From sequence record DRR723986_7384: a DNA stretch of 64,000 nt; one strand, given 5' to 3'. Positions within the stretch are counted from its first letter, which is position 1; each line of letters begins with the position of its first letter. Shown piece after piece: positions 10,407 to 55,910 of this stretch. Position numbers and translations under genes: made by a program. Below the pieces are notes generated by a model that did not search any database, was not told where the DNA came from, and was given only the letters and a program-made list of their open reading frames with translations.

Positions 10407-10600
10407 CAAGAGCTGGGCGAAGAACCCATGAAAGCTCGTGCGGCGCTCCGCTCAGCCATCGAGCAGCCATATTGAGCTTGTTCGCCACTGCTGCTCGAAC
10501 GTCATGGGCGGAGCGTGTATCATAGTGGACTTGGTTAGGAACTCCTGAGCCCGCCTTGGACGACTATTACCCGCCTGCCTCTCGCCCTCGGAATAGCCCT

Positions 10601-31208: not shown

Positions 31209-31217
31209 CGTCTTCCG

Positions 31218-33725
31218 CTACTTGTTGAGGAAAATTCGACTGTCGAGGGCGGCATGCAACAACGACTTGAGTCCGTAGTCTTGCTGCTTGGTAGAAGCAA
31301 CAATTTCATCGATAATCTCTCGATCGGCAAAAGCAATTTCTGAGCCGGTTGCATACTTCAGCAGATGCTCAACGAAACATCGCGCGATGGGCTCGGGCGA
31401 GTCATTCCAAAGCTGCTGGAACTCTTGGAAAGATCCGAAGCTTCGCCCATCGGGCAATGTATCGCTCGAATCAATCGGTTGTCCTGATCGAGTCTTGCCC
31501 CTGGAAACCGCAACATACTTTTCTCGCCATCGGCCAGCAGCGTCGAAATTCTCAAGGGCATTGCCAGGCGGATCAATCTTCTGGTGGCAACTTGCGCAAG
31601 CCGAATCTGATTTATGTTTGGCCAACATCTCACGAATGGTCGTTGCGCCGCGAATATCTGGTTCGATCGCAGGCACGTTTTCAGGTGGAGGAGCAATGGG
31701 CTGCCCCAAAATCCGCTGCGACACCCAAACACCTCGGAGGACCGGAGAAGTATTCGTGCCATTGGCGGTCACCTTGAGAATAGCGCCATGAGCTAGCAGG
31801 CCACCGCGAACGCTATCTTCGGGCAATTCAACGCGACGCATTTCCTGCCCTTCGACACCTTCGATCCCATAGTACTCAGCCAGCCGACCATTCAGGAAGG
31901 TATAGTCAGCAGTAACCAGCTCGTTTGCAGGCCGATTGTTCCGCAGAGCATAATCAACGGCCATGCGAGTCTCACCAAGCATCGCATTCTGAACGACCAA
32001 GTCGAAATTGCGGTAGAGTTTTCGATCCGGCTCGGTGAAGTCGATATTTGCCAAATCGAGCCAGCTATCTGCGAAACGCTCAACAAAGTCTGCTCCACGT
32101 GTATCGTCTAGCATGCGTTCAGTCTGCCGCCTGACTTCTCCAGGCTGAAGCAGCTTGCCACTGGCGGCAACCTCCCAAAGTTGATCGTCGGGCATTGAGC
32201 CCCAGAGCAAATAGCTAAGCCGGTTTGCAACCGCGAAACCATCCAATTGGCCTGCAGGCTCTGAAAAGTAAATAAAACGCGGGGAACACAAGATCGCTCT
32301 GTAGACACCACGCAGTGCGCCTATGGGTGCAACTCCCTGCTCAAGCTGTGCGTGGAGCATCTCCTGATAAAGGGCAACCGCATCTTCGCTGAGCCTGCGC
32401 CGGGCAGCTCGCTCTGCAAACCGATGCACTTGCTCGCTTAGCGAACGCTCCAACCGCTCACCTTTGGCGGTTAAGACCAGACCGCGTTTCTTGGCGTTGA
32501 CGGGGACATTGCCGAAAAGTCGCTGCCGCGTAAGGTCCGGCGTACCGCCCGGGTAAAGCCGCTCGATAGTCATATCATGCAAGGCGACACCAGCAATATC
32601 CTGCGGCTCGCCTTCGCCCGCGCCAACTTGACCTCCGCGAAAACGCCCTGTCTTCAAGGTCGCATCCGCCGGACGAATCTCAAGCATATGGTCTTTTGGA
32701 ACCCAGGCGATATAGGTGTGCTCGGTGGGAGTTTCCGTGGCTTCGAAGGTCCCGATGGAGGTCATCAGAGGTGCACCAGAATTACAGCGACCGCTACGAA
32801 TGGTGCACCAAACGCCGCGGTCCTCCGGAGGTCTAACACTGGAAGCTCGAAACCGGACCTTGTACCAGCCACCCTCGCGCATCGTGGTGCTAGTGATCCG
32901 GCCATAGAAGATCATCGTGCTGCTCCACACGACAGCAAGTCCATCACGCATCTCCGGGTCGCGACATCTGCGTTTTGGATTCGAGCGAGCCAACCGACGC
33001 GCGTCGTACTCCATCACTCGATCGTCGACCTCCGCTTCACCGGCGCGTTCAAATGCAGCATCCAGAGCTGCATCGACCACTGAAAGGTGGTCCTCAAGCT
33101 GGAAGTGCGACATGGATTGTGCCGCAGCAATATTGGTGACCCCTTCATGCCGAACCTCCTCTGGCAACAGACCAGCAAGTGGTACGTCGATTGCCAGGAG
33201 ATCATGCAGTGTCGATTCCAATTCTTGATTTGTCAGCCGACGGCCTCGAGTCCTTCCGAACTGCTCAAGCTGCTTTTCCTGCGTATGCTTAAGCCAGTGA
33301 TGCGTCTGGGACTCGAACTCTTGCCGGGCAGGAAAGTCAGGTGAGTCCTTATCGATTGTCCCATAGTCCTCCGGCGGCATCTCTCCGTCGCGAACGCGTT
33401 CGAATACACGAACCCATTTGGCGAACGCTTCGTGATCCGCCAGAATATTTGTGTCCGATTTTGTTCGGTCCAAGAGCTGCTCCAAATCGGCGCCACCTTC
33501 CGCTCCATCACCACTGTGACAATCCAGGCAATGTTCGCTTAAAAAAGCCTCTCCAGCACCAGGAAACGGATGCAAAGCTTTAGTCTCGCCGACGCTGTCT
33601 TTGGACTCAGCAGCGCCGTCGGCGGCCAACGCCGCGCTGGAACACAGATCGCCCACGTGCACCAGAGTGGCGGTGACTAGAGCAAGTGCAAATGAGAGAC
33701 TGACGGTTCCGTTGGTTTTCATCAT
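31218..33725 (-). CDS. DUF1592/DUF1588/DUF1585/DUF1587/DUF1595 protein with planctomycete cytochrome c domain
   Basis: CLDCH, RRLTNQE, ANRLSYLLWGSMPD, TSPVLRGVW, CASCHQKIDPPG, FDAAGRWR. Confidence 0.9.
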   Translation of the reverse strand: MMKTNGTVSLSFALALVTATLVHVGDLCSSAALAADGAAESKDSVGETKALHPFPGAGEAFLSEHCLDCHSGDGAEGGADLEQLLDRTKSDTNILADHEAFAKWVRVFERVRDGEMPPEDYGTIDKDSPDFPARQEFESQTHHWLKHTQEKQLEQFGRTRGRRLTNQELESTLHDLLAIDVPLAGLLPEEVRHEGVTNIAAAQSMSHFQLEDHLSVVDAALDAAFERAGEAEVDDRVMEYDARRLARSNPKRRCRDPEMRDGLAVVWSSTMIFYGRITSTTMREGGWYKVRFRASSVRPPEDRGVWCTIRSGRCNSGAPLMTSIGTFEATETPTEHTYIAWVPKDHMLEIRPADATLKTGRFRGGQVGAGEGEPQDIAGVALHDMTIERLYPGGTPDLTRQRLFGNVPVNAKKRGLVLTAKGERLERSLSEQVHRFAERAARRRLSEDAVALYQEMLHAQLEQGVAPIGALRGVYRAILCSPRFIYFSEPAGQLDGFAVANRLSYLLWGSMPDDQLWEVAASGKLLQPGEVRRQTERMLDDTRGADFVERFADSWLDLANIDFTEPDRKLYRNFDLVVQNAMLGETRMAVDYALRNNRPANELVTADYTFLNGRLAEYYGIEGVEGQEMRRVELPEDSVRGGLLAHGAILKVTANGTNTSPVLRGVWVSQRILGQPIAPPPENVPAIEPDIRGATTIREMLAKHKSDSACASCHQKIDPPGNALENFDAAGRWREKYVAVSRGKTRSGQPIDSSDTLPDGRSFGSFQEFQQLWNDSPEPIARCFVEHLLKYATGSEIAFADREIIDEIVASTKQQDYGLKSLLHAALDSRIFLNK

Positions 33726-39988: not shown

Positions 39989-40153
39989 TTCAGTGCATAC
40001 CCTCAGTGGCTCGAATGTTCGAGTCGCAGGGATGCCACTGTTGTGTGTTGGTCGTGAGTATCGGTGGCGAAGATACGAGCTGCCCATCACACATTTACAA
40101 TCACATTGCCGCGATTATCCCTTCGCGGCACCCCGCATTCCTGGAGAGATGCA

Positions 40154-40333
40154 ATGAAGAATTTTGCAGCTAAAGTACAACGTTTTCTTAAGTCTGAAGA
40201 CGGCCCAACTGCTGTTGAATACGCAGTAATGTTGGCTCTTATCGTTGTTGTTTGCTTGGGTGCAATCACATCCATCGGTAGCAACGCGAACAGCACATTC
40301 CAAGGTGTTGCTGACCAACTCGGCACTCCTTAA
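40154..40333 (+). CDS. flp: Flp family type IVb/c pilin
   Basis: MKNFAAKVQRFLKSEDG/PTAVEYAVMLALIVVVCL; GGAG upstream of ATG 40154. Confidence 0.95.
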   Translation: MKNFAAKVQRFLKSEDGPTAVEYAVMLALIVVVCLGAITSIGSNANSTFQGVADQLGTP

Positions 40334-40496
40334 ATCGCGTATGCCTGACAACTTCACGAGAGGTTGTCACATGACGAGATTCAAGGCTTCAGCGGCGAGC
40401 CGCCTTTTCCAGGTGCGACTCATTGATTGAGGCCTCTACGATTCTGTCACGCGTCTTGCGTCGCGTGTCAAGAAGAATATCGATCCGCGGTTTTCT

Positions 40497-40524
40497 GGCG
40501 ATCCGCCTGCTTGGGCGGATCGCC
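40497..40524. other. Strong inverted repeat / hairpin between flp and cpaA
   Basis: GGCGATCCGCC-TGCTTG-GGCGGATCGCC, perfect 11-bp stem, no U-tract on the + strand. Confidence 0.7.
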
Positions 40525-40883
40525 TGAATTGCGTACAGAACCTTGCCCTTGGCCTGGTTCACCAAATCACTTGAGCCCCTAACTGGCTCCTGTTTCCATG
40601 TGCCTTACTCCCGAAAGGAGATATCAGAATGATGCCTCACCTGATGCCTACCGAATCGATTGCAGGCCTGTGGGAACTTGCTTGCTGCGCAGGAACGCTC
40701 CTGACCACGCTGTTCGTTTGGTTGGTCAGCCTCCGGTAATTTGCTTGCGATAGGACACGAGGTCAAGCGATTACCAGCAAACGACGCAAACACACGATTC
40801 AAAATTAATGGCCAAGTTGCCCGAGCAGCACAGAGCCGCTCGAAACGCCTTCGCCGGCGTGCCATTTACACACGGGGTTCGAC

Positions 40884-41441
40884 ATGGAAAACATTATCGC
40901 GAACATCACTGAGAACTGGGCCATGTGGGCCGTCTCGGTAACACTTGTTGTGGCTGCTGTCATTGACGGACTTTATTTGAAAGTCCCCAACAAAATCACT
41001 TATCCGCTGATCGTTGCGGGCTGGGTCTACAGCTTTGCCGTCGGCGGTTGGGCAGGACTTGGGTGGAGCTTTGCCGCGACATTCTTCGGCCTAGCCCTTT
41101 TGTTCGGACTTCACCTAATTGGTGGAATGGGTGCCGGCGACGTCAAGCTACTTGCTGGCATTGCGGCGTTCGTCCACATCGAACACACCTGGTACATTTT
41201 TGTGGCGACGACAATCGTGGGAGCGATCATGGCCATTGGCCAAATTGCACTCAGCGGCCAGTGGCTGAAGCACTGGACACAGGCTCAGGCGATCCTGCAG
41301 GAGATTGTGACCGTTCGCGACGCGGACAAACTGTATGAGATGTCTCAGGAGCGCAAGCCGCAGATGCGATTGCTGCCATACGGCATTCCAATGACGGTTG
41401 CCGCAATTGGCTACTTCGCATTCTCGGGAATGCTCTACTAG
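40884..41441 (+). CDS. cpaA: A24 family prepilin peptidase CpaA/TadV
   Basis: AAVID..LKVPN, GGMGAGDVKL, LPYGIP. Confidence 0.93.
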   Translation: MENIIANITENWAMWAVSVTLVVAAVIDGLYLKVPNKITYPLIVAGWVYSFAVGGWAGLGWSFAATFFGLALLFGLHLIGGMGAGDVKLLAGIAAFVHIEHTWYIFVATTIVGAIMAIGQIALSGQWLKHWTQAQAILQEIVTVRDADKLYEMSQERKPQMRLLPYGIPMTVAAIGYFAFSGMLY

Positions 41442-41909
41442 AACAACGCTTCTAGTTACATCAGTGAATACTGCCCCTGACGACTACGCGTTAGTACTTC
41501 AGGACGGGCAGGAGCTAGCAGAGCAAAGTGCATTCGGGTGTTCTACCCTGATTTGCTAGCTACCTGCACCAGCCCCTTTTTGGGTGACTGTGCCGATTGG
41601 CGCATTTTGTCTGGTTGTAATGATTGTCTGCCGCTTCTAATGCCGATTGGTGACAGAGAGCGCTCAATAGTCACGCCCGACCTTGCCCCGGTGGTGCGCA
41701 CCCTGTTGCTGCTAGGCAAGATAGTCCATCTTCGAAACATACACTGAAGCCGTGTACGTCGTTATGCCAATGATAGCTTTACCAACTGCGCTGTCACCGG
41801 CGCATGCCCGCGAATTGGACTCAACGGCCAAGCAAGAATAGCTGACTCTGCCAAGTTAAAGGATTTGTTTGGCGAGTTACGAAATCAACGTTTAAGGCAG
41901 CCGAAGTCG

Positions 41910-42971
41910 ATGCGTGGAAAACCAATTTTACTTCTAGTAGTAGCCCTCGGTTGTGGCATGGTCGCAGCCGTTGCAGCTAGTAAAGCTGTCGTGGGTGGTG
42001 GAAACGGGCAGGCTGCTGAGGAGATGGTTGAGATCTTCGTGGCGGTAAAGGATCTTCCGCATGCGCAGAAGGTCACAGCCGAGAATATTAGGCTGGAAAA
42101 GTGGCCTAGGAAACGCCTTCCCGAAGGCGCGCTCGTCAATCTCGAACAACTCGAAGGCAAGTTTACCAATCAAGGTATCTTCGCCGGTGAACCCATCCTG
42201 GAACGAAAACTGAGCGAATCACGCGACAGTCTTTCGACGGGCATGCCCGAAGGCCATCGCATCTTCGACTTTGCTGGCGGTGTGACCGGTTACATCAAAC
42301 CCGGTGACCACGTTGATATATATGGCACCTTCCAACTTGGTGGTCGCAACAGCACACTTGAAAGTCGCATGGTGATGGAAGACGTCTCTGTGCACGCGAT
42401 AAACGGAATCACCATTCGGGATTCTGACGATCTCGCCAGCTCGCGGAAACTGACGTTTCAACTACTTGTGCGAGAGTCACAGTTGGAAGCGTTGACGCTA
42501 GCAAACAGAATGGGCGAACTAGACCTTCACCTGCGGCCAATGGGTGAATCCCAGGGCGACACAGAAACCGACAACGGCGAAGCGTTCTTGCAATGGGTCG
42601 AAGATTCGCGAGCACCCGAGCCAACGCTCCTAACTTCGACGGAGACCGCGCAACCGGTCGAGCAGGAACAACCTGCTGCAACGAACGAAGTTGCTCACGA
42701 AATGCTAGTTATGACTCCCAAAGGCATTCGACGCTATCAATGGGATGATAAGAATTCACTTCCGAAGCTGATGGAAGATAGCTCGCAAGGGGAGGGGGCA
42801 AACGGCTCTCGCGGTGAAACGCAAAATTCATCTCAGAATGTTCCTGAAGGTTATGGTGGTTATACGCCGACATATCCTAACAGCGACGAGATTGAACAGT
42901 TCCTGCAGGGGGAAGGCTCTCTCCCTCCAGAAGCAGACGAGCCGAGTGTGCTTCAGCGTCGTCGAAACTAA
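41910..42971 (+). CDS. cpaB: Flp pilus assembly protein CpaB/RcpC
   Basis: N-terminal TM, SAF domain (VAVKDLP...GEPILERKL), GYIKPGDHVD. Confidence 0.9.
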   Translation: MRGKPILLLVVALGCGMVAAVAASKAVVGGGNGQAAEEMVEIFVAVKDLPHAQKVTAENIRLEKWPRKRLPEGALVNLEQLEGKFTNQGIFAGEPILERKLSESRDSLSTGMPEGHRIFDFAGGVTGYIKPGDHVDIYGTFQLGGRNSTLESRMVMEDVSVHAINGITIRDSDDLASSRKLTFQLLVRESQLEALTLANRMGELDLHLRPMGESQGDTETDNGEAFLQWVEDSRAPEPTLLTSTETAQPVEQEQPAATNEVAHEMLVMTPKGIRRYQWDDKNSLPKLMEDSSQGEGANGSRGETQNSSQNVPEGYGGYTPTYPNSDEIEQFLQGEGSLPPEADEPSVLQRRRN

Positions 42972-43090
42972 AGTCGCTGCGAACGGGAAACTGTTCTAAG
43001 CGACTGCGCATCTGTGATGGATGCCAACAACCGTGGGTAGGGTTGATTCGCAATCAGGGAAGATTGTGAGCCTATTCCGCAGAAACAAGG

Positions 43091-44794
43091 ATGTTTTGCA
43101 TGGCTGCCTCGAAATTACGCCAACGCGTGTCTCACAAGCTGCGTGGGTTGCTGCGTTCCGCGCTATGCGCGTCAGCCCTCTACGCCGCCACGCAGTCCTC
43201 TGTGCTGGGACAGCAGACGAGCCAATGGGAACTCGCCAACTCGAACGTTGCCGTCGACTCCCGTCAACCCGGCCGTCAAGCGATCCGCATGGTGATCAAC
43301 ACCTCTCGCGAGATCACCGCAACGGAAGACTTCAAGCAGGTCAAGATCGAGAACGATACTGTTTTGACTGCTCAGCCGATTGGACCCAATCGGCTGCAAG
43401 TCTACGCGATGCAGGCTGGTATTACGCAAATTGACCTCGAATCGGCCGACGGTGATGTGCACCAGATCGAGGTGATGGTCGTTAGTGATGCGCGTGTCCT
43501 CGAGCGAACGCTGCAGGATGTTTTCCCCGACGCGAACCTTACCGTTTATCCGGTACAGCAGGGATGCATTATCAACGGCAGTGTGACCAACGCGAACCAA
43601 GTCGAGATGGTTTCGCAGATCGCCGAGCTGCACTTTCCAACCGTAATCAATAACGTCGAAGTCTCAGGCGTGTTTACGGTTCAACTAGAAGTACAAATCC
43701 TGGAAGTGTCTCGCACGAAGCTCCGTGAACTCGGAGTCGACTGGGCATTTTCCAACGGCGACGATGTCATCGCCCAGACCGTTGGCGGGCTAGTAAGTGC
43801 TACCGGAGCTGCTTTCACGGGCACCGGTCAAGAAACCGTCAGGTTGGGTGTTATCGAGAATAGCACATCATTCTTCAGCGGAGTCCGAGCGCTTCGCCGC
43901 AATAACCTCGTCAAAGTCCTTGCCGAACCGAAGTTGGTCGCCGTCGATGGGCGTCCCGCCAGCTTCAACAGTGGTGGTGAAGTACCGATTCTGATCCCGG
44001 CAGGCCTGGGCCAAGTTGGTGTTCAGTTCCGCGAGTTTGGCACGCGCCTTGACTACGTCGCCAAGGTGCTTGGCAACGGCCGGATTTGGCTTGAAGTGCG
44101 ACCGTATGTTAGCGAAGTGGATCCGAGTCGGTCCGTCAGTGCTAGCGGTATTAGCGTCCCTGGTTTCCGCAGTCGTTATCTCGAGACTGGCGTCGAATTG
44201 GGTGCCGGCCAGACGCTGGCCCTTGCTGGACTGTTGCAGGTCAAGAGCGAAACGATCAACCTGGGACTCCCTGTACTTAGCGACATGCCGTACTTGGGTG
44301 TCTTGTTCCGGAGCACTCGAGAGGAACAGAACGAAATCGAACTGCTCATCACGGTCACGCCTAACTTCGCCGCTGGACTGGATCCTCACCAAGTCCCTTG
44401 TGCACTTCCTGGTCTTGGCTCACAGTCGCCAACGGACAAGGAACTGTACCTCCGCGGTTATATGGAATCACCTGCACCGGATGGATGCGGGCCGAACTGC
44501 CAACCAGGCGGGCTTCTGCCACCGCCACACTCCGCGCAGTTCGAGCCAGCTCAAGTTTATGAGGGCGGAATCATCATGCCCCAAGGAACCCAGCCGGTGC
44601 AAAACATGGGACCGCAGGTTGCACCACAACCCGTCCCAGCCCCGCCAGCAATGAGCGTCGCGCCCCACGCGCCGAGACTTGCTACTCGCCCCCAAGGAGA
44701 ATTCTCCCCGTACTATAACGGTACCGATGGGGCGGCAGGCAGCAATTCCGCAACGGGTGCGAGTCAGTATCCGACCGGCGGCGTCATGCGATAA
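43091..44794 (+). CDS. cpaC: Tad secretin CpaC/RcpA
   Basis: VQILEVSRTKLRELGVDW, LAEPKL, ASFNSGGEVP, FREFGTRL, GQTLALAGL, ELLITVTP. The start may be 43100. Confidence 0.93.
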   Translation: MFCMAASKLRQRVSHKLRGLLRSALCASALYAATQSSVLGQQTSQWELANSNVAVDSRQPGRQAIRMVINTSREITATEDFKQVKIENDTVLTAQPIGPNRLQVYAMQAGITQIDLESADGDVHQIEVMVVSDARVLERTLQDVFPDANLTVYPVQQGCIINGSVTNANQVEMVSQIAELHFPTVINNVEVSGVFTVQLEVQILEVSRTKLRELGVDWAFSNGDDVIAQTVGGLVSATGAAFTGTGQETVRLGVIENSTSFFSGVRALRRNNLVKVLAEPKLVAVDGRPASFNSGGEVPILIPAGLGQVGVQFREFGTRLDYVAKVLGNGRIWLEVRPYVSEVDPSRSVSASGISVPGFRSRYLETGVELGAGQTLALAGLLQVKSETINLGLPVLSDMPYLGVLFRSTREEQNEIELLITVTPNFAAGLDPHQVPCALPGLGSQSPTDKELYLRGYMESPAPDGCGPNCQPGGLLPPPHSAQFEPAQVYEGGIIMPQGTQPVQNMGPQVAPQPVPAPPAMSVAPHAPRLATRPQGEFSPYYNGTDGAAGSNSATGASQYPTGGVMR

Positions 44795-44862
44795 CTAGAC
44801 GATAGAAACACGGTGGTGGCGTTTGACGCTCCGACGATCGAAATAGTAAAAGGCCAGCGTGT

Positions 44863-46089
44863 ATGAGCAACGTTTTACGAATAGCATTGGTTGATCCGGA
44901 TGATCAATCACGAGAGTCGCTGAAGAACACTCTTCTGGGCATGGACGTCGTATGGCTTGAGGCCGAATGCTCGCGATACGAGTTCTTTCCGGACGTCGTT
45001 TCACAGTCGACTCCCGATGTTGGAATCGTCAATCTTGATGGCGATCAGGAAAAGGCAATTTCGCTGCTTTCGCGCATGCGCGCCGACCATCCAGACTGCG
45101 CATTGTTAGCGGTTAGCTCAGGGTCCGACGGCCAACTCATCTTGCAAGCCATGCGTGCTGGAGCCAGAGAGTTCCTAACCCTTCCAGCGAACCTAGACGA
45201 AATCCTGGCGGCCTTGGGCCGTATTGGCGAACAGAAATACGGCACTGCAGGTGCAGCAAGTCGTTCGACGAAGATCATTGCCGTTGCCGGCGCTTCTGGC
45301 GGTGTTGGCTGCACGAGCGTGGCCGTAAATCTGGGCTGCGTACTAGCCTCGCAACCAAACAACAGTGTCGCTTTGGTCGACCTAGACATGGCAATCGGCG
45401 ATGCAGATGTATTTCTGGACACGATCCCCGACTACACACTGATCGACGTTACGCAGGAAATATCGCGTCTCGACTTTCAGATGTTGAAGCGATCGCTCAC
45501 CAAGCACAGTTCGGGACTTTATCTATTGCCGCGCCCAGTGCAACTCCAAGACTCGAGCATGATTACGCCCGAGTCCTTGCGCCGCGTGTTCGGCTTGCTG
45601 AAAGCGACGTTTACTCACATTGTGATTGACGTATCGAAATCTTTCTCCGACACCGACATCGCCGCTTTGGAATTTGCCGACGATGTGTTGATGGTCGTAC
45701 AGCTAGACCTGCCGACCCTTCGCAACTTAGTGCGATTGCAAGCGTCATTCGATGAGATCGAACAACTTCGCGACAAGCTGAAGATTGTTGTGAACCGCGT
45801 CGGTCTGGAGAGTGGCCAGATCAAGCTCAAGAAGGCGAAAGAGACGATCGGACGCGACGTCTACTTCCAAATCCCCAACGACTACCGAACGATGATCGAA
45901 GTTCGCAACAACGGGGTTCCGCTGCTCGAGCAGGCTCCCAAAGCGCCGATCACGCTCGCGATGCAGGAACTTGCGCATCGACTGTGTGGCAATGGTGAAG
46001 AAGACGTGGAGGCGGATGACAAGCCGACGTCGAACGTTTCTTCAAGCTGGCTGAACTTCTGGCCAGGTAAGTCGAAGGCCAAGAGCTAG
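44863..46089 (+). CDS. cpaE: CpaE/TadZ (pseudo-receiver plus MinD/ParA-like ATPase)
   Basis: Receiver with AMRAGAREFL, deviant Walker A GASGGVGCTS, LVDLD, IVVNR, IPND. Confidence 0.9.
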   Translation: MSNVLRIALVDPDDQSRESLKNTLLGMDVVWLEAECSRYEFFPDVVSQSTPDVGIVNLDGDQEKAISLLSRMRADHPDCALLAVSSGSDGQLILQAMRAGAREFLTLPANLDEILAALGRIGEQKYGTAGAASRSTKIIAVAGASGGVGCTSVAVNLGCVLASQPNNSVALVDLDMAIGDADVFLDTIPDYTLIDVTQEISRLDFQMLKRSLTKHSSGLYLLPRPVQLQDSSMITPESLRRVFGLLKATFTHIVIDVSKSFSDTDIAALEFADDVLMVVQLDLPTLRNLVRLQASFDEIEQLRDKLKIVVNRVGLESGQIKLKKAKETIGRDVYFQIPNDYRTMIEVRNNGVPLLEQAPKAPITLAMQELAHRLCGNGEEDVEADDKPTSNVSSSWLNFWPGKSKAKS

Positions 46090-46572: not shown

Positions 46573-47616
46573 CTAGTCTTCCGTGTTCACTAAGACGCTC
46601 TTGGCGATTCGCCCAGAGTGCATCTCTTCGAAAGCATCGTGCCAGTCGTCAAGCTGCCACGTCCCACCAACGATTTTCGATACATCCAGGTCACCGCTGG
46701 CCAGCAGCACGAGCACGCGTTCCCAAGTCGACCAGGTGTGCGAAAAACTCCCCTGCAATTGCACATTCTTCTGCACCAGCGGGTCAAGCGAGAAACCGAG
46801 CGGATCGCGGCCCCAACCAACTTTGCTAATCCAGCCCGCAGGGCGAACTGCCTTGACGGCAAGCTCAAGGGTTGCAGAAATGCCCGCAGCATCGACAACG
46901 CCGTCTGCGCCCAAACCGTCTCGCTCGAGAGCCCAGTCAAGCGCTTGGTCAGCGCTTTCGATTGTGTGACACCCAAAGCCTTTTGCGATATCAAGCCGAG
47001 CCGCGTCACTGGGTAGGCCAACCACGGCCACGTGCGCACCTCGTAGGCGAGCCATTGCAGCCGAGAGCAAGCCAATGGGGCCAGGTCCAATCACCATCAC
47101 TCGATCGCCCGGCAGGATATCAACGTTCGTTACCACAGCGCTAAATGCAACGCAGCAAGGCTCTGTTAGCGCCGCGACATCCAACGGCAATGATTCGGGA
47201 ACCTTGTGAAGACATCGGGCAGGCACACGCACGAACCGGGTCATGGCTCCGTCAACACCATAGCCGAACCCCTTTCGGTTCGGATCGAGATTGTACCGTC
47301 CAATCCGGGTCATCGGACTGTTCGCATCAATAACTGCAGCAGTTTCGCTGCAGGCACGATCCCCTTCGCTGAACCCAACTACCGATGCACCGACTCGCTC
47401 AATCACACCAGCGAACTCATGCCCAAGTGTGACAGGGTAATTCACCGGCCAACTGTGCTGAGCGGTCCACTGGTGAAGATCACTTCCGCAAACGCCGACT
47501 GCCGCGACTTTTAACAGGACGTCATCATCGCCAATCTCCGGAATCGGAATCTCCCGTAGTTCTACGCTTCCAGGTTCCGGAGCAAAATTCACGATGGCCG
47601 GCTGGTTTGGAGGCAT
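46573..47616 (-). CDS. Zinc-binding alcohol/sugar dehydrogenase (MDR family)
   Basis: GVCGSDLH, GHEFAG, LTEP, GPGPIG. Confidence 0.92.
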   Translation of the reverse strand: MPPNQPAIVNFAPEPGSVELREIPIPEIGDDDVLLKVAAVGVCGSDLHQWTAQHSWPVNYPVTLGHEFAGVIERVGASVVGFSEGDRACSETAAVIDANSPMTRIGRYNLDPNRKGFGYGVDGAMTRFVRVPARCLHKVPESLPLDVAALTEPCCVAFSAVVTNVDILPGDRVMVIGPGPIGLLSAAMARLRGAHVAVVGLPSDAARLDIAKGFGCHTIESADQALDWALERDGLGADGVVDAAGISATLELAVKAVRPAGWISKVGWGRDPLGFSLDPLVQKNVQLQGSFSHTWSTWERVLVLLASGDLDVSKIVGGTWQLDDWHDAFEEMHSGRIAKSVLVNTED

Positions 47617-47689
47617 AGTTTCTTGATCTGTATGGATTGGAATGGCAGGGAGTTAGCACGCAGAATCCGTGCGCATTCTAGAGATTTCC

Positions 47690-47717
47690 TTGACAGGCCA
47701 CTAGTTGTTTGTACTCT
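47690..47717 (+). promoter_or_regulatory. Sigma70 promoter for the riboswitch leader
   Basis: TTGACA (47690-47695), 16 nt, TACTCT (47712-47717), about 11 nt before riboswitch P1. Confidence 0.65.
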
Positions 47718-47728
47718 AGTGGGCAGAT

Positions 47729-47942
47729 CGTGGTGGTGAGTGCCTGATGCTTCAGGGCTCACGAACAGGGAACTCCGGTGAAATTCCGGGACGGACCGGC
47801 CGCTGTGATTTGCCGCACGTTGCTCTTTGTTTAATTGAGCATCGTTGTTCACGCTCCTTCTGGATGAAGTGTCATTGCCCCAAACACTTGGGGTGAGAAG
47901 ACGTCGAGTGTGAATAGGCAAAGAGTCAGAAGACCTACCACG
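47729..47942 (+). ncRNA. Cobalamin (AdoCbl class) riboswitch
   Basis: P1 CGTGGT...ACCACG; GGTG; AACAGGGAA-CTCCGGTGAAATTCCGG-GACGGACCGGCCGCTGTGA; GTCATTG...GAGAAGAC; B12 box GAGTCAGAAGACCTAC. Confidence 0.92.
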
Positions 47943-48052
47943 CGTTTAGAGCATCTGCCCTCCTGGATTTTGGGGCTTGCGCTTGAGGGGTAATTCAATG
48001 TCGAATTGCCTTCACCTCTAAAGCACTTTGGCACATCCTGGAACACGGCGTC

Positions 48053-48841
48053 ATGCGCTCACGGTCCGCATTTACCCTTGTGGAATTGCTCGTTGTCATT
48101 GCGATCATTGGCATTCTTGTCGGCTTGTTACTGCCAGCGGTGCAGGCGGCTCGAGAAGCTGCTCGCAAGGTATCTTGCAAAAACAATCTTCGGCAAATGG
48201 GAATCGCCCTCCACAACTATGAATCTGCCCACCGTTGCATGCCGACGGGATGCATTCAGTGGCGGCCCTTTGGCGGAAGCCCTTCACGCAAGCAATTTGC
48301 GTGGTCAGCCCTTATCCTGCCGTTTCTCGAGCAAGGAAACCTACACGCCCAAATTAATTTCGGCGTTCCCTTTGATGCACCGGAGAACGCTGAGTCCGCA
48401 GCAAGACGGTTGCAAGTCTACGAATGCCCAACTGCCGAAGACCGCGAGATGATTCGTGGAAGAACCGATTATGGAGGGCTGTTCGGCGAACGGATGCAGG
48501 ACAACAAGCCCGACGACGGAACCTTCCTCTACGAGACCAAGATCGAGTTCCGTGACATTCGCGACGGCCTCTCTCAGACTGCGTGCATTTCCGAGGACGT
48601 CGGTGGACCGAGCAGTGAGTGGATTAACGGTGCCAACGTCTTCGTTCAATCTGGCTCAATCAACGATCCAAACGTTTGGATTGGCGACAACGAAATTCGC
48701 TCCAAACACACTGGAGGCGCGATGATTCTGTTCGCGGACAGCCACGTGCACTTCATCTCCCAACACGTTGATCAACAGGTCTTAGGGGCCATCATTACTC
48801 GCGCCAGCGGTGAAGTTGTTAATGAGTCCGACTACAGATAA
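48053..48841 (+). CDS. DUF1559 family type IV prepilin-like protein
   Basis: [58 protein letters not shown]-terminal H-X9-D(S) motif [12 protein letters not shown]. Confidence 0.95.
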
Positions 48842-48893
48842 CAAAACCCTACACGCGAACAACACAAGACATCACACCAAGAAGACTACCAAC

Positions 48894-49787
48894 ATGAGAA
48901 CCTCAATGCCTCGAACCACCTTCAGTCAAAGCTTGTGCAGCGGTTTAAGAGCCTGTTGCGCGATCGTCTTTTCCGCGTACCTTCTACCAGTCTGCAGCCA
49001 GGCGGCGGTAATTGACTTCGAAGATCTCACGGTCTTCAGCGGCACCAGCGGAACAAGCGACAATCAACCTGGCGGACAGTTTTACAACGGGGACACCGGT
49101 GCAACGAACACCGATGGTTTCTCCAGCGGTGGGATGTTCTTCAGCAATTCGTTTACTCAAACTGATACGTTTTCGTTTTGGAGTGGTTTTGCTTACTCCA
49201 ACGTCGTCAACAGCGTGACCTCTGGCTTCGGAAATCAATACGCTTCCGTGGCTGGTGGAGGAGCTGACGGGTCTGGCGGTGCATCAGCGGGCACAAACTA
49301 CGGCTTGCTTTTTGGCGGTGGATTCCTGAATGTGCCTGTAAACCAAGAGCTCGCGTCGATGGAGATCACAAACACCACCTATGCTCACAATTCAATGCGC
49401 GATGGCGACGGATTCGCGAAGCAGTTTGGTGGTCCAACCGGCTCCGACCCAGACTTCTTCCGACTCAACATCGTTGGCTTCAACGCTGAAGCCGGCGGTG
49501 GCGACATGGTCGGAAGCCTGCAAGTCTCACTGGCGGATTACACCTTCACGGACGACTCTCAAGACTTCATTCTCGATTCATGGACGAACGTCGACCTAAC
49601 CAGCCTTGCCGGCGCACGCAGCCTGACGTTCTCGTTTGAGTCGAGCGATGTTGGCAACTTTGGAATCAACACGCCAAGATACTTTGCCGTCGACAACATC
49701 GCATTGACGGCCGTGCCAGAGCCCACGTCAATCTTTATGTTGGCATTCGCGTGTGCGACAACAGCCACGCGGCGAAGGAAAAGCTAG
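48894..49787 (+). CDS. DUF4465 domain protein with PEP-CTERM sorting signal (BtuJ-like putative B12-binding surface protein)
   Basis: Signal peptide; WSGFAYSN, NQYAS, ITNTTYA..SMRDGDGFAKQFGG, LADY, W..VDLTSL, ESSDVG..GINTP.YFAVDN; C-terminal VPEPTS + hydrophobic stretch + RRRK. Confidence 0.85.
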   Translation: MRTSMPRTTFSQSLCSGLRACCAIVFSAYLLPVCSQAAVIDFEDLTVFSGTSGTSDNQPGGQFYNGDTGATNTDGFSSGGMFFSNSFTQTDTFSFWSGFAYSNVVNSVTSGFGNQYASVAGGGADGSGGASAGTNYGLLFGGGFLNVPVNQELASMEITNTTYAHNSMRDGDGFAKQFGGPTGSDPDFFRLNIVGFNAEAGGGDMVGSLQVSLADYTFTDDSQDFILDSWTNVDLTSLAGARSLTFSFESSDVGNFGINTPRYFAVDNIALTAVPEPTSIFMLAFACATTATRRRKS

Positions 49788-49801
49788 TTCTGAAAAGCAG
49801 A

Positions 49802-51175
49802 CTACGCGGCGGAGCGATCCGCTGCTTTCGTAGCCGATAAACTGCCGCAGATGTTCAGCACCTGCTCAGCCGACTGCTTCCAGCTCGTCAACCTGCGCTG
49901 GGCAATCCTGGTCGGAGCCCCGGAGGATTTGGCGTCCTCCCACTGAACAAGTTGTTCAACCAGACTTTGCGGACCATCAAGAGCAAAGTAGGTGCAGTCC
50001 TGTTGCCCGACTTCGCGATGGATTTTTGTGTCGCTGGCAAAGGTCTTCTGACCAAACCACAGCGATTCCACAATGGGCAATCCAAAGCCTTCAACGATTG
50101 ATGGGAAGATTACACCGCCAGCGTTGCGGTAGCAGTACTGCAGCTCTGCGTCGTCAAGATCGTTGAACAGAAACAGCTTCCGCCCGAATTCTTCATGCGC
50201 CCGGATTCGCTGGACGGTTGCGTCAGCTTTAGCGCCTAACCTACCGACCAACACAAGCTTTGCACCGGAGCCTTGCGTCCAGTGCTTTTCCATGGCGTCG
50301 AGCAGATACTCGTGATTCTTTCGTGGATCAAACGAGGAAACGGTCAGGTACGGCGCGTCTCCCGTGAACACTTCCTGAACGTGCGAGCGGACTTCGCCAT
50401 CGCAGTTGCTGAGTTCGCAACCAAGCTCAAATGGCTCGACGGCGGAACATAGCGTGGGATCGTTCTGCCCACGCAGAAACTCCACCAGATCATCTCGGAC
50501 GGTCTTGGAGATCGTGAGCAGCAGGTCGGTACTACGAGCGCACTCGACTAGATATTTCTTAAAAGCGGTTGAGCGTTCTTTGCCGACGAACTGTGGGTGT
50601 GTCAGCGGGATTAGATCGTAGATCACGCATGCAACGGTTGCTCCAGCGGCACGAGCGTCTTGAGCGGCTGGCCACACGGTGTCCTGAAGCTTGCTCACCC
50701 AGTAAGCGTCAGGCAGCAAGAACAGATCCCCAGGACCTGGCTGTACCGATTGACCGCTGGTCGCAATCTTTCTCTGCAGTCGACTTGCTTTGAAACTGTA
50801 GGGCAGCTTAAAAATGCCGAGATGCCCAGGTTCAGGCAACAGCCATTTCTGAAGTGCTTTGGAGCGGACCACCGAACACGCACTTGAAGCGAACGCCCGA
50901 TACGCAAGAGATTGCTCTCGCAACACATCGTGCCGCAGGCTACCAAACCTTGCCAGGCTCTGACACTGCGCTGCAGTCAGTGAGACGAACTTCCCGTCGC
51001 TACTGATGACTTGAGAATACTCAAACCGCTGACCTTCGGCGCTGAGCTGTTCAGTTTGCGCGGACAGATTGCGAACGACACGTTCGATTCCGGAATTTCG
51101 GCCAGAACCAAGCGTGTACGAAGCATCAACGAAGATGCGGTTGGTATTTTGGGCGTGAATTTTGGACCTGAGCAT
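49802..51175 (-). CDS. GT4 glycosyltransferase
   Basis: SGIERVVRN, YDLIPLTHP, PRKNH, FPSIVEGFGLPIVE. Confidence 0.9.
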   Translation of the reverse strand: MLRSKIHAQNTNRIFVDASYTLGSGRNSGIERVVRNLSAQTEQLSAEGQRFEYSQVISSDGKFVSLTAAQCQSLARFGSLRHDVLREQSLAYRAFASSACSVVRSKALQKWLLPEPGHLGIFKLPYSFKASRLQRKIATSGQSVQPGPGDLFLLPDAYWVSKLQDTVWPAAQDARAAGATVACVIYDLIPLTHPQFVGKERSTAFKKYLVECARSTDLLLTISKTVRDDLVEFLRGQNDPTLCSAVEPFELGCELSNCDGEVRSHVQEVFTGDAPYLTVSSFDPRKNHEYLLDAMEKHWTQGSGAKLVLVGRLGAKADATVQRIRAHEEFGRKLFLFNDLDDAELQYCYRNAGGVIFPSIVEGFGLPIVESLWFGQKTFASDTKIHREVGQQDCTYFALDGPQSLVEQLVQWEDAKSSGAPTRIAQRRLTSWKQSAEQVLNICGSLSATKAADRSAA

Positions 51176-52594: not shown

Positions 52595-53887
52595 CTAGGC
52601 GAGAATTTCCTTGATGGGCGTACCATCGTTGCAAATCCGGAAAGGTCTGCCATTGGGCGCATAAAACTCTTCGTCGAGTGGAAGCCCCATTGCGGTCGCA
52701 ATCGTCGCGTTTAGATCTTGCGGGTACACCGGATCGTCTTCTACACCATGCCCCTTGGCGTCACTGCTACCGTAGACGCTTCCGCCCTTGATGCCCGCGC
52801 CACACATCATGGCAGAGAACACGCCTGGGTGATGGTCACGCCCCGCGTTTTCGTTGATCTTTGGGGTTCGTCCAAATTCAGTTGTCAGCACAACCAAGAC
52901 CTCATCTAACAATCCCTTGCTGTGCAGGTCTTTGATCAAAGCTCCAACGGCGTTGTCTACATTGGATACCATGCCCGGCAAGCGTCCGTAGAGATTGTCA
53001 TGGTGATCCCACCCGCCATACTCAACCTCAACGAATCGCACACCCTTTTGCACCAAACGCCGCGCGAGCAGGCACCCCTGACCAATACGGTTCTCTCCGT
53101 AAAACTCTCTAACCGCGGGCTTTTCCTGCTTGATGTCAAACACTTTCAGCTCCGACGAACTCATCAGGCGGACAGCCTCCTTGTAGGTCTCGTCATACGC
53201 ATCGATCAAACTGGATTCGGTACTCGTTCGAAACTTTGCATCGAACTGCCGCGTGAGTGCCATTCGTTTGCGAAACTGATCTTCGGCAAGGTAGCTGGGG
53301 CCGGTTGTATTCTGCAAACCGCTGGCAGGGTTGCTGACCGGTACGGGAGAAATCGATGCTGGCAGGAATCCCGCTCCAGGATGCTGTGCCCCACCTCCGA
53401 CGGTAACGTTACCCGGCAAATTCCGATTGGCCTTGCCCAACACATGATTACTCCAAGCACCCATGCCGGGGTGGCGGATCGAGTTGAGCGGTTTATAACT
53501 CGTCCGCATCATGTATTCACCTTGCTCATGCGCACCGGTCTCGGTGGTCATGGAGCGGATTAGAGCAAGGCCGTTCATCAAATAAGCCAGCTTGGGCATC
53601 TTGTCGTTGATCGCTACGCCGGACAGACGAGTCTTGCCGGGCTGAGTTTCCCCCTGCGATTCGGTTCCCGGCTTGGGGTCGAAAGTGTCCAGGTGGCTCA
53701 TCGCGCCAGTCATGTACAGGTAAATGACGCTCTTAGCTTTACCCGGTGAAACGCCGTTGGCCGCCATCGCAACGGGCTCGAGGGCGCGTCCTGTGAGTGT
53801 CCCCGCGCATCCAACTCCGAGAAGAGTCTTGGCCGCATGCGCCATGAAGTTTCGGCGTGTCGGTTCTTGATGGTGCATCAGATGCAT
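52595..53887 (-). CDS. DUF1501 family Tat-exported protein
   Basis: TRRNFM, GAMSHLDTFDPKP, LARRLVQKGVRFVEV, GWDHH, EFGRTP, GRDH. Confidence 0.93.
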   Translation of the reverse strand: MHLMHHQEPTRRNFMAHAAKTLLGVGCAGTLTGRALEPVAMAANGVSPGKAKSVIYLYMTGAMSHLDTFDPKPGTESQGETQPGKTRLSGVAINDKMPKLAYLMNGLALIRSMTTETGAHEQGEYMMRTSYKPLNSIRHPGMGAWSNHVLGKANRNLPGNVTVGGGAQHPGAGFLPASISPVPVSNPASGLQNTTGPSYLAEDQFRKRMALTRQFDAKFRTSTESSLIDAYDETYKEAVRLMSSSELKVFDIKQEKPAVREFYGENRIGQGCLLARRLVQKGVRFVEVEYGGWDHHDNLYGRLPGMVSNVDNAVGALIKDLHSKGLLDEVLVVLTTEFGRTPKINENAGRDHHPGVFSAMMCGAGIKGGSVYGSSDAKGHGVEDDPVYPQDLNATIATAMGLPLDEEFYAPNGRPFRICNDGTPIKEILA

Positions 53888-53945
53888 CCTCGTTGTTCTT
53901 GTTTAGCGGACGGTCGTTTTCAAGCGGACAGAACGACGGTTTCAG

Positions 53946-55910
53946 TTACTGAATGAATAAGAATTCTCGGGTATTGATCAACGCCCAGACCACGTTGCCA
54001 TAGCCCATTGCGGTGTCGCCACGCCCCAATTCCTTCAGCCCGATTTCACGATCACGATTCGTGGGCTGACGATTTAGAATGGACAAGAACATGACGTCCA
54101 GCGCGCCTCGTGACGTTCTGGCTCGCAGCAAGTTGTCGTAAATCACCGACCCCTTCTCGAGCATCATGTGTGTAAACGGCCCATTGAACATCGTCAAGAT
54201 TTGTGGAACCGTTGGGTCTGTGCTATCACCTTCGATCGTCTCGCGGTCGCCTTGTCCAAACTGGCGGAGAAAGTGATCGGGAGGAAGCGGCGACGGGAGC
54301 TCTGATGCACGAATCAGTGCTTGGCGACGATACCCGACTGCTTTGTTCAGTAGTTTATTTCTAGCACCGGGGCTCACCTTTTCGTCAAACGTCTCCTTCT
54401 TCGCCTCAAGCTCGGAAGCAGAAACCTTGGCAAGATCAACATCGACGACTGAAGCCATCTCGTCGGTACTCGGCAACTCGGCTGCCATCGGGTTGTAGAT
54501 CGCAATCGTCAGCACAGAATCCCAGACTTGTTCCGCAGTCATCCGGCGAAGCCGTGGGCCTGGGTAGTAATAAAACTCGGACTCAGATGGATCGAAATCA
54601 CTCGACTTCCGATGATACGTTTTGGTGAAGTAAAGTGTCCTCAGGAATTCTCGCTGGTTGAACTTCAGCCGAATCATTTCCTTGGTCAGGAAGTCGAGAA
54701 GTTCGGGATTCTGGCATGGGGAATCGTCCTTGATATCGTCAATTGGCTCAATCAGACCAACACCGAACACCTTCTTAAACAACCGATTGGCAATAGTCTT
54801 CGCGAACAACGGATTGTTCGGAGCGGTCAGCCAGGCGGCATAGGCCTCGCGAGGCGATTTGTCTGCGGCTGCCTTAGGGATTTCACTCCACAGCACTTTA
54901 GCCTTCACTTTTTCGTTTGGCTTTCCATCACTGTACTGGTAATCATGCGGCAGCTTGAGAACACGCTTGGCATTGAACGAAACGTTATGCAAATTAGCTT
55001 GTGCAAGCAGATTCGCCGAACCGGGGAGCCGAGACTCGCCGGACATGTCCTTGAATTCCTTCTTAAGCCGTTCGATGGGGTTGCCGTCTTTAAAAGCCGG
55101 CGTTCCACCTCCGTCACGTGTTCGCGTTCCATGAGTGAATGCCGCCAACTGGTAGAACTCTTTCTGAGTCCACTTGTCAAAGGGATGATCGTGACACTGA
55201 GCACATCCAATCTGGGTGCCTAGGAATACTCGCACGGTGTTATCGACGTGCACTAGAGGCATTCCATTGTCACGCATCGTGTAGCCAACCGCGGGCGACT
55301 CCCAGACTTTCCCTTCCGCGGTAAGCATCTCGTAAACCCATTTATCGTAGGGCCGATTCACGCGGATCTGATCCTTGACCCAATCCTTATACGGATAGGC
55401 AAGAATGTTGTTGGACGGACGATCCTTGATGCGAAGAATCGACGCCCAGTAGTTGTACATATGGCTAACGTGACCATAGCTACTAAGAAGAGTGTCGATC
55501 AGCCGCTCGCGTTTGTCGGACGCTTTGTCGGCTTTGAAAGCAAGCGTTTGCTGGAGCGTCGGAATGGTTCCTGCGATATCCAGGTAAGCTCGACGCACAA
55601 AAGTAAAGTCGTCGGCCATCGCGTTCGGCGCACCGCCTTGCTCGGAGAGCTTTGCTTCGATCAGAGCATCGATACGCTGCGCGGCCGATTTGCGATCAGC
55701 CGTACTACCAGACTCAACAGGAGTCACACGCGGCTTCCCTTGCGGAGCCGTCTTTACAGCTTCAGGCAAACCGTAGCCCTTGAACTTCTGACTTGGCAGC
55801 TTCTTTTTCTTCCCTTTCTGAGCCAATACGGGAGCCGCGGGAACAGCAAATAGAGCGATCAAGATGATTCGCAGGATCCTGGAGCCTTGTAAAATCTCAA
55901 GGAAGTTCAT
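53946..55910 (-). CDS. DUF1549/DUF1553 planctomycete protein
   Basis: FVRRAYLDIAGTIPT, IGCAQCHDHP, ANRLFKKVFGVGL, WALINTREF; canonical pairing with the downstream DUF1501 gene. Confidence 0.92.
   Translation of the reverse strand: MNFLEILQGSRILRIILIALFAVPAAPVLAQKGKKKKLPSQKFKGYGLPEAVKTAPQGKPRVTPVESGSTADRKSAAQRIDALIEAKLSEQGGAPNAMADDFTFVRRAYLDIAGTIPTLQQTLAFKADKASDKRERLIDTLLSSYGHVSHMYNYWASILRIKDRPSNNILAYPYKDWVKDQIRVNRPYDKWVYEMLTAEGKVWESPAVGYTMRDNGMPLVHVDNTVRVFLGTQIGCAQCHDHPFDKWTQKEFYQLAAFTHGTRTRDGGGTPAFKDGNPIERLKKEFKDMSGESRLPGSANLLAQANLHNVSFNAKRVLKLPHDYQYSDGKPNEKVKAKVLWSEIPKAAADKSPREAYAAWLTAPNNPLFAKTIANRLFKKVFGVGLIEPIDDIKDDSPCQNPELLDFLTKEMIRLKFNQREFLRTLYFTKTYHRKSSDFDPSESEFYYYPGPRLRRMTAEQVWDSVLTIAIYNPMAAELPSTDEMASVVDVDLAKVSASELEAKKETFDEKVSPGARNKLLNKAVGYRRQALIRASELPSPLPPDHFLRQFGQGDRETIEGDSTDPTVPQILTMFNGPFTHMMLEKGSVIYDNLLRARTSRGALDVMFLSILNRQPTNRDREIGLKELGRGDTAMGYGNVVWALINTREFLFIQ

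Follow-up and report, generated by a model that had tools for sequence, protein, structure and literature searches.

We report a two-gene unit, led by a cobalamin riboswitch, on a 64,000-nucleotide (nt) stretch of DNA from sequence record DRR723986_7384 (hereafter the window, to which all window coordinates refer). The first gene encodes a prepilin-like protein of the DUF1559 family (P0001) and the second a protein of the DUF4465 family (P0002), which has vitamin B12-binding members. Riboswitch and gene pair recur in many related loci, and among DUF4465 loci the prepilin-like gene and a gene for a TonB-dependent receptor are distributed in a complementary manner. That both genes serve the acquisition of corrinoids is highly probable. 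We favour reading the unit as a self-contained cassette for B12 starvation, whose pilin-like protein would serve a step that follows capture of the vitamin; judging from gene context we give this reading a probability of about 0.45, the post-capture step being its weakest link. The riboswitch and the DUF4465 trap are of kinds already known. The riboswitch-controlled pairing of DUF4465 with a prepilin gene, and its complementarity with the TonB-dependent receptor, were found in no paper and are new as far as the literature was searched.

The features of the unit and its two flanking genes are (aa, amino acids):

47690-47717, + strand: possible promoter (TTGACA at 47690-47695, 16-nt spacer, TACTCT at 47712-47717), an unconfirmed reading of the sequence
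47714-47956, + strand: aptamer of a Cobalamin riboswitch (RF00174), from Rfam, full model
47957-47976, + strand: conserved post-aptamer element GCCCTCCTGGATTTTGGGGC, from leader comparison
48053-48841, + strand: P0001, prepilin-type DUF1559/HX9DG protein of 262 aa, from Pfam, NCBIfam and a structure model
48894-49787, + strand: P0002, DUF4465 (BtuJ-family) jellyroll with C-terminal PEP-CTERM, 297 aa, from Pfam, NCBIfam, PDB and a structure model
46573-47616, - strand: Zn-dependent alcohol dehydrogenase (flank), from Pfam
49802-51175, - strand: glycosyltransferase of family 4 (GT4; flank), from Pfam

The gap between the two genes is 52 nt, with the stop codon of the first ending at 48841 and the ATG of the second at 48894. 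No btuB, btuFCD or cob gene was found among the 44 open reading frames (ORFs) of the window that were scanned against Pfam. A TonB-dependent-receptor profile gave no match to the window ORFs, and a Plug or barrel protein is encoded neither in the unit nor in the window. An original prediction, made from the sequence alone, had described this layout: a full cobalamin riboswitch, two co-oriented genes 52 nt apart between opposite-strand neighbours, no btuB, btuFCD or cob gene in the unit, a type IV pilin N-terminus on the DUF1559 protein and the BtuJ domain in its partner. Our coordinates and searches agree with it on each of these points. It had also proposed a covariance search, a profile and structure comparison of 48894-49787 with BtuJ/DUF4465, and a survey of Planctomycetota for synteny and for btuB, which came out in its favour, that for btuB as far as 8 kb on either side of DUF4465, as described below.

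The riboswitch and the two proteins behind it

In an Rfam covariance scan, the region 47714-47956 matched the Cobalamin family RF00174 over the full model (positions 1-189 of 189), with 62.4 bits against a gathering threshold of 31.5 and an expectation value (E) of 4.7e-13. This is the only gathering-level Rfam match in the whole 64-kilobase (kb) window. Directly behind the aptamer lies the element GCCCTCCTGGATTTTGGGGC (47957-47976); a similar sequence is found 3' of the aptamer in all five leaders that cover this position (L001, L003, L004, L006 and L009), a sixth leader (L013) ending upstream of it, and the element may be part of the expression platform. We were not able to find an intrinsic terminator before the ATG, and the fold of 47900-48075 had no extra stability over shuffled sequences (z -0.10). 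Repression of the gene pair by cobalamin is predicted from the sequence. The sigma-70 promoter that had been proposed before the riboswitch is plausible: its -35 hexamer TTGACA is perfect, but the -10 hexamer TACTCT agrees with the consensus at only three of six positions, and a consensus scan of 47500-50000 returned no promoter-like site.

Judged by its profile matches, P0002 is a DUF4465 family member with a predicted sorting route unlike that of BtuJ. Its residues 92-269 match Pfam DUF4465 (PF14717) on profile positions 2-176 of 176 with 155.6 bits (cut-off 25), and NCBIfam PEP-CTERM (TIGR02595) is matched with 24.8 bits (cut-off 16). The C-terminus reads VPEPTSIFMLAFACATTATRRRKS, where a PEP motif is followed by a transmembrane stretch and then a basic tail. 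The N-terminus is of the Sec type, as judged by eye without a signal-peptide predictor; there is no canonical lipobox, and the traits of a BtuJ-type lipoprotein and the Bacteroidota lipoprotein export signal are absent. We found no exosortase gene among the 44 window ORFs scanned.

The best PDB sequence match of P0002 was 9hmu (E 1.1e-18), followed by 4jqr, 9i2l (BtuJ2) and 4e9k. Its structure model, which has a predicted local distance difference test score (pLDDT) of 83.4, matched 9hmu_A in a fold search with E 4.6e-17 and a target template modelling (TM) score of 0.77; the target TM-scores were 0.80 for 9qpm, 0.83 for 4jqr and 0.77 for 9fct. Three of these fold matches, 9hmu, 9qpm and 9fct, are B12-bound structures. 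DUF4465 is described as a B12-binding jellyroll family that includes BtuJ1 and BtuJ2, with binding demonstrated for eight proteins at identities down to 16%, one of them 'Pan' of the planctomycete Mucisphaera calidilacus; the Coraliomargarita protein D5EK51 was solved with B12 as 9HMU, and two conserved tyrosines are placed in the HI loop (GTPAYF/NTPAY) and in the DE-loop helix (PMC13398666). BtuJ1 and BtuJ2 are surface lipoproteins that capture cobamides and hand them towards BtuG-BtuB (PMC13616437). In P0002 the HI-loop motif is INTPRYF (258-264) and the DE-helix motif TNTTYA (159-164). N259, T260, P261 and Y163 are invariant and Y263 nearly invariant in an alignment of 24 sequences, and both tyrosine regions align with 9hmu. 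From family sequence and fold, it is very likely that P0002 is secreted, sorted through PEP-CTERM and able to bind B12, and to this extent the B12 trap of the original prediction stands, with its anchoring at the surface as a putative feature; we infer binding by P0002 itself from its family.

As for P0001, profile matches and model describe a protein that is pilin-like at its N-terminus and carries a head for which no relative has been solved. It matches Pfam DUF1559/SBP_bac_10 (PF07596) with 176.2 bits (cut-off 23.3) and N_methyl (PF07963) with 29.9 (cut-off 21.2), and in NCBIfam the HX9DG domain (TIGR04294) with 30.8 (cut-off 19) and IV_pilin_GFxxxE (TIGR02532) with 24.7 (cut-off 16.3). A leader MRSRSA precedes FTLVELL, whose Glu lies at +5; this residue, E11, does not vary across 38 sequences. 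In the model (pLDDT 92.8, predicted TM score 0.88) a helix of 52 residues (9-60) leads into a five-stranded alpha/beta head of about 200 residues, which is large for a pilin. PDB sequence matches are limited to the pilin N-terminal helix, and the best fold match, gonococcal pilin 1ay2 (E 0.32 over 58 columns), likewise covers the helix only.

Two further assignments of P0001 were tried and set aside. As a GspG orthologue it reached 34.3 bits on the TIGR01710 equivalog, against a cut-off of 88.85 and over residues 6-64 only; a search of the ESM Atlas without DUF1559 clusters gave best scores of 0.76 and 0.75 (glycine-radical proteins), below lead level. Co-folding of P0002 residues 36-272 with P0001 residues 29-262 scored 0.00 in both runs, controls not having been run, and is evidence neither way.

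DUF1559 is a very large superfamily: a search at E <= 0.001 gives 239,683 cluster representatives, of which 1,731 remain at E <= 1e-30. Planctopirus limnophila has 68 paralogues, two of them essential (PMC10632474), and Tuwongella immobilis has 91 (PMC8567305). In some DUF1559 orthologues (L002 1554-2522, L008 6932-7900, L021 6680-7900 and protein P0123) the ORF reaches some 50-75 residues upstream of the cleavage motif, and this extension holds a four-cysteine segment that in P0123 matches Pfam DUF1289 with 40.3 bits. Should the extension prove genuine, a small Cys-rich domain would sit on the leader that is cleaved off the prepilin, an unusual feature. Another protein, P0158, looks as if a PEP-CTERM gene and a DUF1559 gene had been called as one.

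Conservation of the unit and distribution of its partners

The genome collection yielded 606 relatives to a search with an alignment of P0002 and 23 related proteins. We analysed the 80 best loci, each seen up to 8 kb on either side of the DUF4465 gene. A callable DUF4465 ORF is present in 78 of them, 49 of which are labelled Planctomycetota (the Phycisphaerae are counted apart). Taxon labels are those of the records; L041, labelled Alcaligenaceae, shows the planctomycete arrangement and may be mis-binned. Genes on the same strand, near DUF4465 and with a profile E < 1e-30 were counted as close orthologues of P0001.

Such an orthologue stands beside DUF4465 in 38 of the 49 Planctomycetota-labelled loci; it directly precedes DUF4465 in 36 of these and follows it in L011 and L062. 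Across 37 further orthologue sequences, taken from 36 loci, identity to P0001 ranges over 39-66%. Some prepilin-like gene is present in 43 of the 49, and four of the six loci that lack one end at a contig edge. Across the 80 loci no relative (E <= 1e-10) was found for any of seven proteins that flank the unit in the window; therefore only the cassette is conserved.

The riboswitch is kept as well. Rfam found a homologous Cobalamin riboswitch on the same strand upstream of the gene pair in 13 of 13 loci tested, and a DNA profile (nhmmer) built from these 13 and the window's own riboswitch found one, in the same position and orientation, in 63 of the 80 loci. The profile is less sensitive for non-planctomycete sequences, since Rfam recovered a riboswitch in five of the nine non-truncated loci that it had missed. 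This brings the total to 68 of 80 related loci. Eight of the other 12 are cut off at the 5' end, and neither the DNA profile nor Rfam found a riboswitch in L018, L055, L056 or L073. The DUF1559 gene usually lies between riboswitch and DUF4465, and is therefore co-regulated by construction.

Three architectures were seen among the loci:

Architecture A (Planctomycetia): riboswitch, DUF1559, DUF4465, the last a PEP-CTERM protein of ~290 aa or a giant of ~2000 aa
Architecture B (Phycisphaerae, most Verrucomicrobiota, some unclassified Planctomycetota): riboswitch, one or two DUF4465-like genes, sometimes a protein of 380-420 aa, prepilin-like gene
Architecture C (Aquabacterium, deltaproteobacteria, Myxococcota, a spirochaete, a flavobacterium, Lentimonas): riboswitch, DUF4465, often a second DUF4465-like gene, TonB-dependent receptor

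The locus of the verrucomicrobium Lentimonas (L056) has architecture C, with no riboswitch found. The prepilin-like gene and the TonB-dependent receptor are distributed complementarily among the loci, as follows:

Planctomycetota-labelled, 49 loci: prepilin-like gene in 43, TonB-dependent receptor in 0
Phycisphaerae, 5 loci: prepilin-like gene in 5, TonB-dependent receptor in 0
Verrucomicrobiota, 8 loci: prepilin-like gene in 6 (5 by motif, L040 by Pfam), TonB-dependent receptor in 1
Groups outside Cyanobacteria and the Planctomycetota-Verrucomicrobiota-Chlamydiota (PVC) group (Beta-, Delta-, Myxo-, Spirochaete, Flavobacteriia), 10 loci: prepilin-like gene in 0, TonB-dependent receptor in 9
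Cyanobacteria, 3 loci: prepilin-like gene in 0, TonB-dependent receptor in 0

Of the eight receptor-linked DUF4465 proteins that were scanned, four (L049, L051, L016, L078) score above the Pfam cut-off for PEP-CTERM and three (L045, L056, L027) carry it with a score below the cut-off; the eighth, L072, has a tail of the type IX secretion system instead. Since such proteins carry PEP-CTERM without a pilin-like gene nearby, trap export elsewhere needs no pilin. At L068 the prepilin-like gene sits between DUF4465 genes and genes for BtuF-like and BtuD-like proteins.

In some loci of architecture A the single DUF4465 gene is replaced by a gene for a giant protein of about 1700-2030 aa (L057 4287-10388, L032 5352-11249), and similar giant genes occur in L035, L058, L060, L065, L074, L076 and L080. 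In the two giants scanned, from L057 (Rhodopirellula) and L032, three DUF4465 stretches are combined with a dockerin type I domain and a 'Planctomycete extracellular' N-terminal motif; by this composition they may be multivalent B12 traps. The protein that in architecture B can stand between DUF4465 and the prepilin-like gene belongs to a family of 381-422 aa without a known function (L017 8049-9194, L048 3518-4696, L052 8837-10045, L069 8870-10138); it has no Pfam match, and two members have weak NCBIfam matches to a Leptospira lipoprotein family.

A post-capture role and its alternatives

The reading that we favour can be laid out as a series of steps. When intracellular cobalamin is low, the riboswitch would permit expression of two exported proteins. 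The DUF4465 protein would be exported by Sec, sorted through its PEP-CTERM and would capture corrinoids with high affinity outside the cell, as BtuJ does in Bacteroides. The DUF1559 protein would start as a prepilin that a prepilin peptidase processes, and its long N-terminal helix would keep it in the inner membrane; from there it would be assembled into a fibre like those of type II secretion or type IV pili. The head would act after capture and carry B12, or the trap loaded with it, over the outer membrane into the periplasm, a step that in other phyla is performed by the TonB-dependent BtuB, and an inner-membrane transporter encoded elsewhere would complete the uptake.

Gene context supports an involvement of the DUF1559 gene in B12 acquisition, and it is at this level, through linkage and complementary distribution, that the original prediction of a corrinoid-retrieving pilin is borne out. 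We favour a post-capture role at or across the outer membrane because the gene is co-regulated by a B12 sensor and has long been kept amid changing neighbours, and because its presence complements that of the outer-membrane importer.

Among the other explanations, the one with most weight, though in our judgement unlikely, makes the DUF1559 protein a helper of export or display: a cargo-specific pseudopilin of a type II secretion-like machine, which would push the DUF4465 trap through the outer membrane or tether it, B12 entering otherwise. Pseudopilins normally work in secretion, and the partner here is always an exported protein, either of the PEP-CTERM type or a giant with three DUF4465 stretches and a dockerin. 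However, operons of Aquabacterium, of a spirochaete, of deltaproteobacteria and of myxococci encode a PEP-CTERM DUF4465 protein with no pilin-like gene, and carry an importer instead, the TonB-dependent receptor. A pure export role is disfavoured, because export of a PEP-CTERM trap needs no pilin in these receptor-bearing organisms. In addition, at L054 (9947-11260) a second Cobalamin-riboswitch-like element directly precedes another DUF1559 gene, with no DUF4465 behind it. Next by weight, and improbable as well, comes a periplasmic shuttle: the DUF1559 protein would never form a fibre, its helix would anchor the head in the inner membrane, and the head would bind B12 in the large planctomycete periplasm and pass it to an inner-membrane transporter. 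Archaeal sugar-binding proteins with pilin-type signal peptides provide a parallel. The Pfam family name SBP_bac_10, the size of the head and the presence of T. immobilis N_methyl + SBP_bac_10 proteins in detergent-soluble membrane fractions (PMC8567305) agree with such a shuttle. Yet no solute-binding protein appeared among the 50 fold-search ranks inspected for P0001, so that the search lent no support to a solute-binding fold for its head; in L008 and L068 the operon has, besides the pilin-like gene, a separate one for a BtuF-like periplasmic binding protein; and the component that is missing relative to other phyla is the outer-membrane transporter, not BtuF.

Last in weight, and very improbable, is a passenger gene with no specific role in B12 metabolism, present since DUF1559 genes are so numerous (the 68 paralogues of P. 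limnophila, PMC10632474, and the 239,683 cluster representatives given above). It would be in keeping with L010 and L032, where riboswitch and DUF4465 occur with no DUF1559 gene. Against it, the close orthologue shares the operon in 38 of 49 Planctomycetota-labelled loci while the surrounding genes all differ, it mostly stands between riboswitch and DUF4465, and P0001 is the sole DUF1559 gene of the 64-kb window.

Several observations weigh against the post-capture reading itself. P0001 has Ala at -1 of the predicted cleavage site and not the canonical Gly, which is the orthologue consensus; several other orthologues also have Ala, and prepilin peptidases can tolerate it. The fold search of P0001 against the PDB gave no match at E <= 0.001, so that no function can be read from the fold of the head. 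A DUF1559-DUF4465 fusion was absent from 11 long proteins scanned among the 150 best cluster representatives, and L010 and L032 do without an adjacent pilin-like gene. The prepilin-like proteins of architecture B resemble P0001 over the first ~50 residues only, and therefore the pilin-like partner across the PVC group comprises at least two head families. Since the view of each locus ended at 8 kb on either side, btuB may lie elsewhere in these genomes. The loci are also related by phylogeny, and the counts are not counts of independent events. A stronger form of the post-capture reading, in which the pilin-like protein takes the place of the TonB-dependent transporter in moving B12 from the surface trap to the periplasm in Planctomycetota, and a protein with another head does so in Phycisphaerae and Verrucomicrobiota, is possible but doubtful.

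The nearest known system is the Btu relay of Bacteroides thetaiotaomicron, which runs from BtuJ1/BtuJ2 through BtuH/BtuK/BtuG and BtuB to BtuFCD. As in that relay, the window has a riboswitch-controlled operon and an exported DUF4465 jellyroll as its first component for extracellular cobamide capture, and many related loci carry two DUF4465 paralogues, like BtuJ1 and BtuJ2. Unlike the relay, the window operon has no genes for BtuB, BtuG, BtuH or BtuFCD, its trap has PEP-CTERM in place of a lipoprotein signal, and a co-oriented prepilin-type DUF1559 gene is part of the unit. The receptor operons of Aquabacterium, Myxococcota, deltaproteobacteria and the spirochaete (L049, L051, L027, L078, L045, L016) share with the window the DUF4465 subfamily (36-47% identity over the best segment), the PEP-CTERM tail and the upstream Cobalamin riboswitch. 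They have a Plug and beta-barrel receptor downstream and no prepilin-like gene, whereas the window has the reverse.

P0001 resembles type IV pilins and type II pseudopilins, including those of DNA-uptake competence pili, in its prepilin leader, FTLxE motif, Glu at +5 and long hydrophobic N-terminal helix. Fibres of the competence kind can bring a substrate inward. The head of P0001, on the other hand, has no PDB match, its GspG score stays below the cut-off, and no assembly ATPase, platform or secretin gene lies inside the two-gene unit. We found no description of a vitamin as pilus cargo in the literature searched, nor any link of DUF1559, prepilin or pilin to cobalamin or DUF4465. In PMC13398666 the words 'pilin', 'DUF1559' and 'PEP-CTERM' do not occur, and its analysis of DUF4465 neighbourhoods names ABC (ATP-binding cassette) transporters, TonB-dependent barrels, plug domains and beta-propellers but no pilin; 'pilin' does not occur in PMC13616437 either. 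According to the 'fishing rod' hypothesis (Boedeker et al. 2017, as summarised in PMC12078418), planctomycetes have pilin-like proteins dedicated to binding a substrate and drawing it into their enlarged periplasm. It shares with our reading a pilin-like protein proposed for substrate uptake. It concerns polysaccharides and names neither a gene family nor a regulator, whereas here the riboswitch ties one DUF1559 subfamily to one small ligand. The suggestion in the original prediction that DUF1559 paralogues are substrate-specific uptake pilins echoes this hypothesis (PMC12078418).

DUF1559 is the largest paralogous family of planctomycete genomes and its function is not known; a ligand-sensing riboswitch before one conserved subfamily names a candidate substrate, B12. 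The finding bears on how PVC bacteria bring large nutrients across the outer membrane; nearly all the PVC operons seen here have no TonB-dependent receptor. It also extends DUF4465 B12 traps to another cell envelope and another downstream partner. If the stronger form of the post-capture reading is true, it would describe a route of vitamin import driven by a pilus or pseudopilus, and the B12-linked subfamily would be the first with an assigned ligand in a family of ~240,000 clusters and 68-91 paralogues per genome. The DUF1559 family would then be implied to be a set of substrate-specific uptake pilins.

Neighbouring genes and further observations

The cassette also points to possible further parts of B12 uptake, such as a ~190-aa membrane protein (Pfam DUF6580, 169 bits on L008) encoded downstream of DUF4465 in eight planctomycete loci:

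L002 3369-3731, DUF6580-type gene
L008 8729-9316, DUF6580-type gene
L023 10340-10948, DUF6580-type gene
L032 11356-11940, DUF6580-type gene
L057 10688-11257, DUF6580-type gene
L060 13369-13962, DUF6580-type gene
L065 10393-11031, DUF6580-type gene
L066 5511-6254, DUF6580-type gene

These proteins have several hydrophobic segments and a conserved RLxPHPPNF motif, and the window holds no copy. Going by these features, the DUF6580 protein may be an inner-membrane corrinoid transporter; the name DUF6580 was not found in the literature searched. One of these genes belongs to a single long riboswitch-led gene string at L008 5525-14679 (also seen on the shorter contig L002), which comprises a PEP-CTERM DUF4465-like gene, DUF1559, DUF4465, DUF6580, the large and small subunits of a class I ribonucleotide reductase and a BtuF-like gene. 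In this string a B12-independent ribonucleotide reductase thus comes under the riboswitch that also leads the cassette genes.

Just upstream of the unit, the window carries a Tad/Flp pilus cluster (40064-46089) with an ORF for a Flp-type pilin (40064-40333), an A24 prepilin peptidase (40884-41441), RcpC/CpaB, a secretin and TadZ/CpaE. We considered these genes as the assembly machine of the unit and rejected them: RcpC/CpaB, the secretin and TadZ are each without a relative in all 80 loci. Flp pili use another pilin class and another peptidase.

A HEARO RNA (RF02033, 120.1 bits) lies on the minus strand at 16250-16483 of the cyanobacterial locus L055 and has no relation to the cassette. In the window, which has a G+C content of 54.5%, typical planctomycete gene pairs are found at 10556-13135, 23523-25187, 29916-33725 and 52595-55910, with PSCyt/PSD DUF1549-DUF1553, DUF1501, DUF1552 and DUF1585-1595 genes and several sulfatases among them. 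Judged by gene content, the window fits a Pirellulales-like origin.

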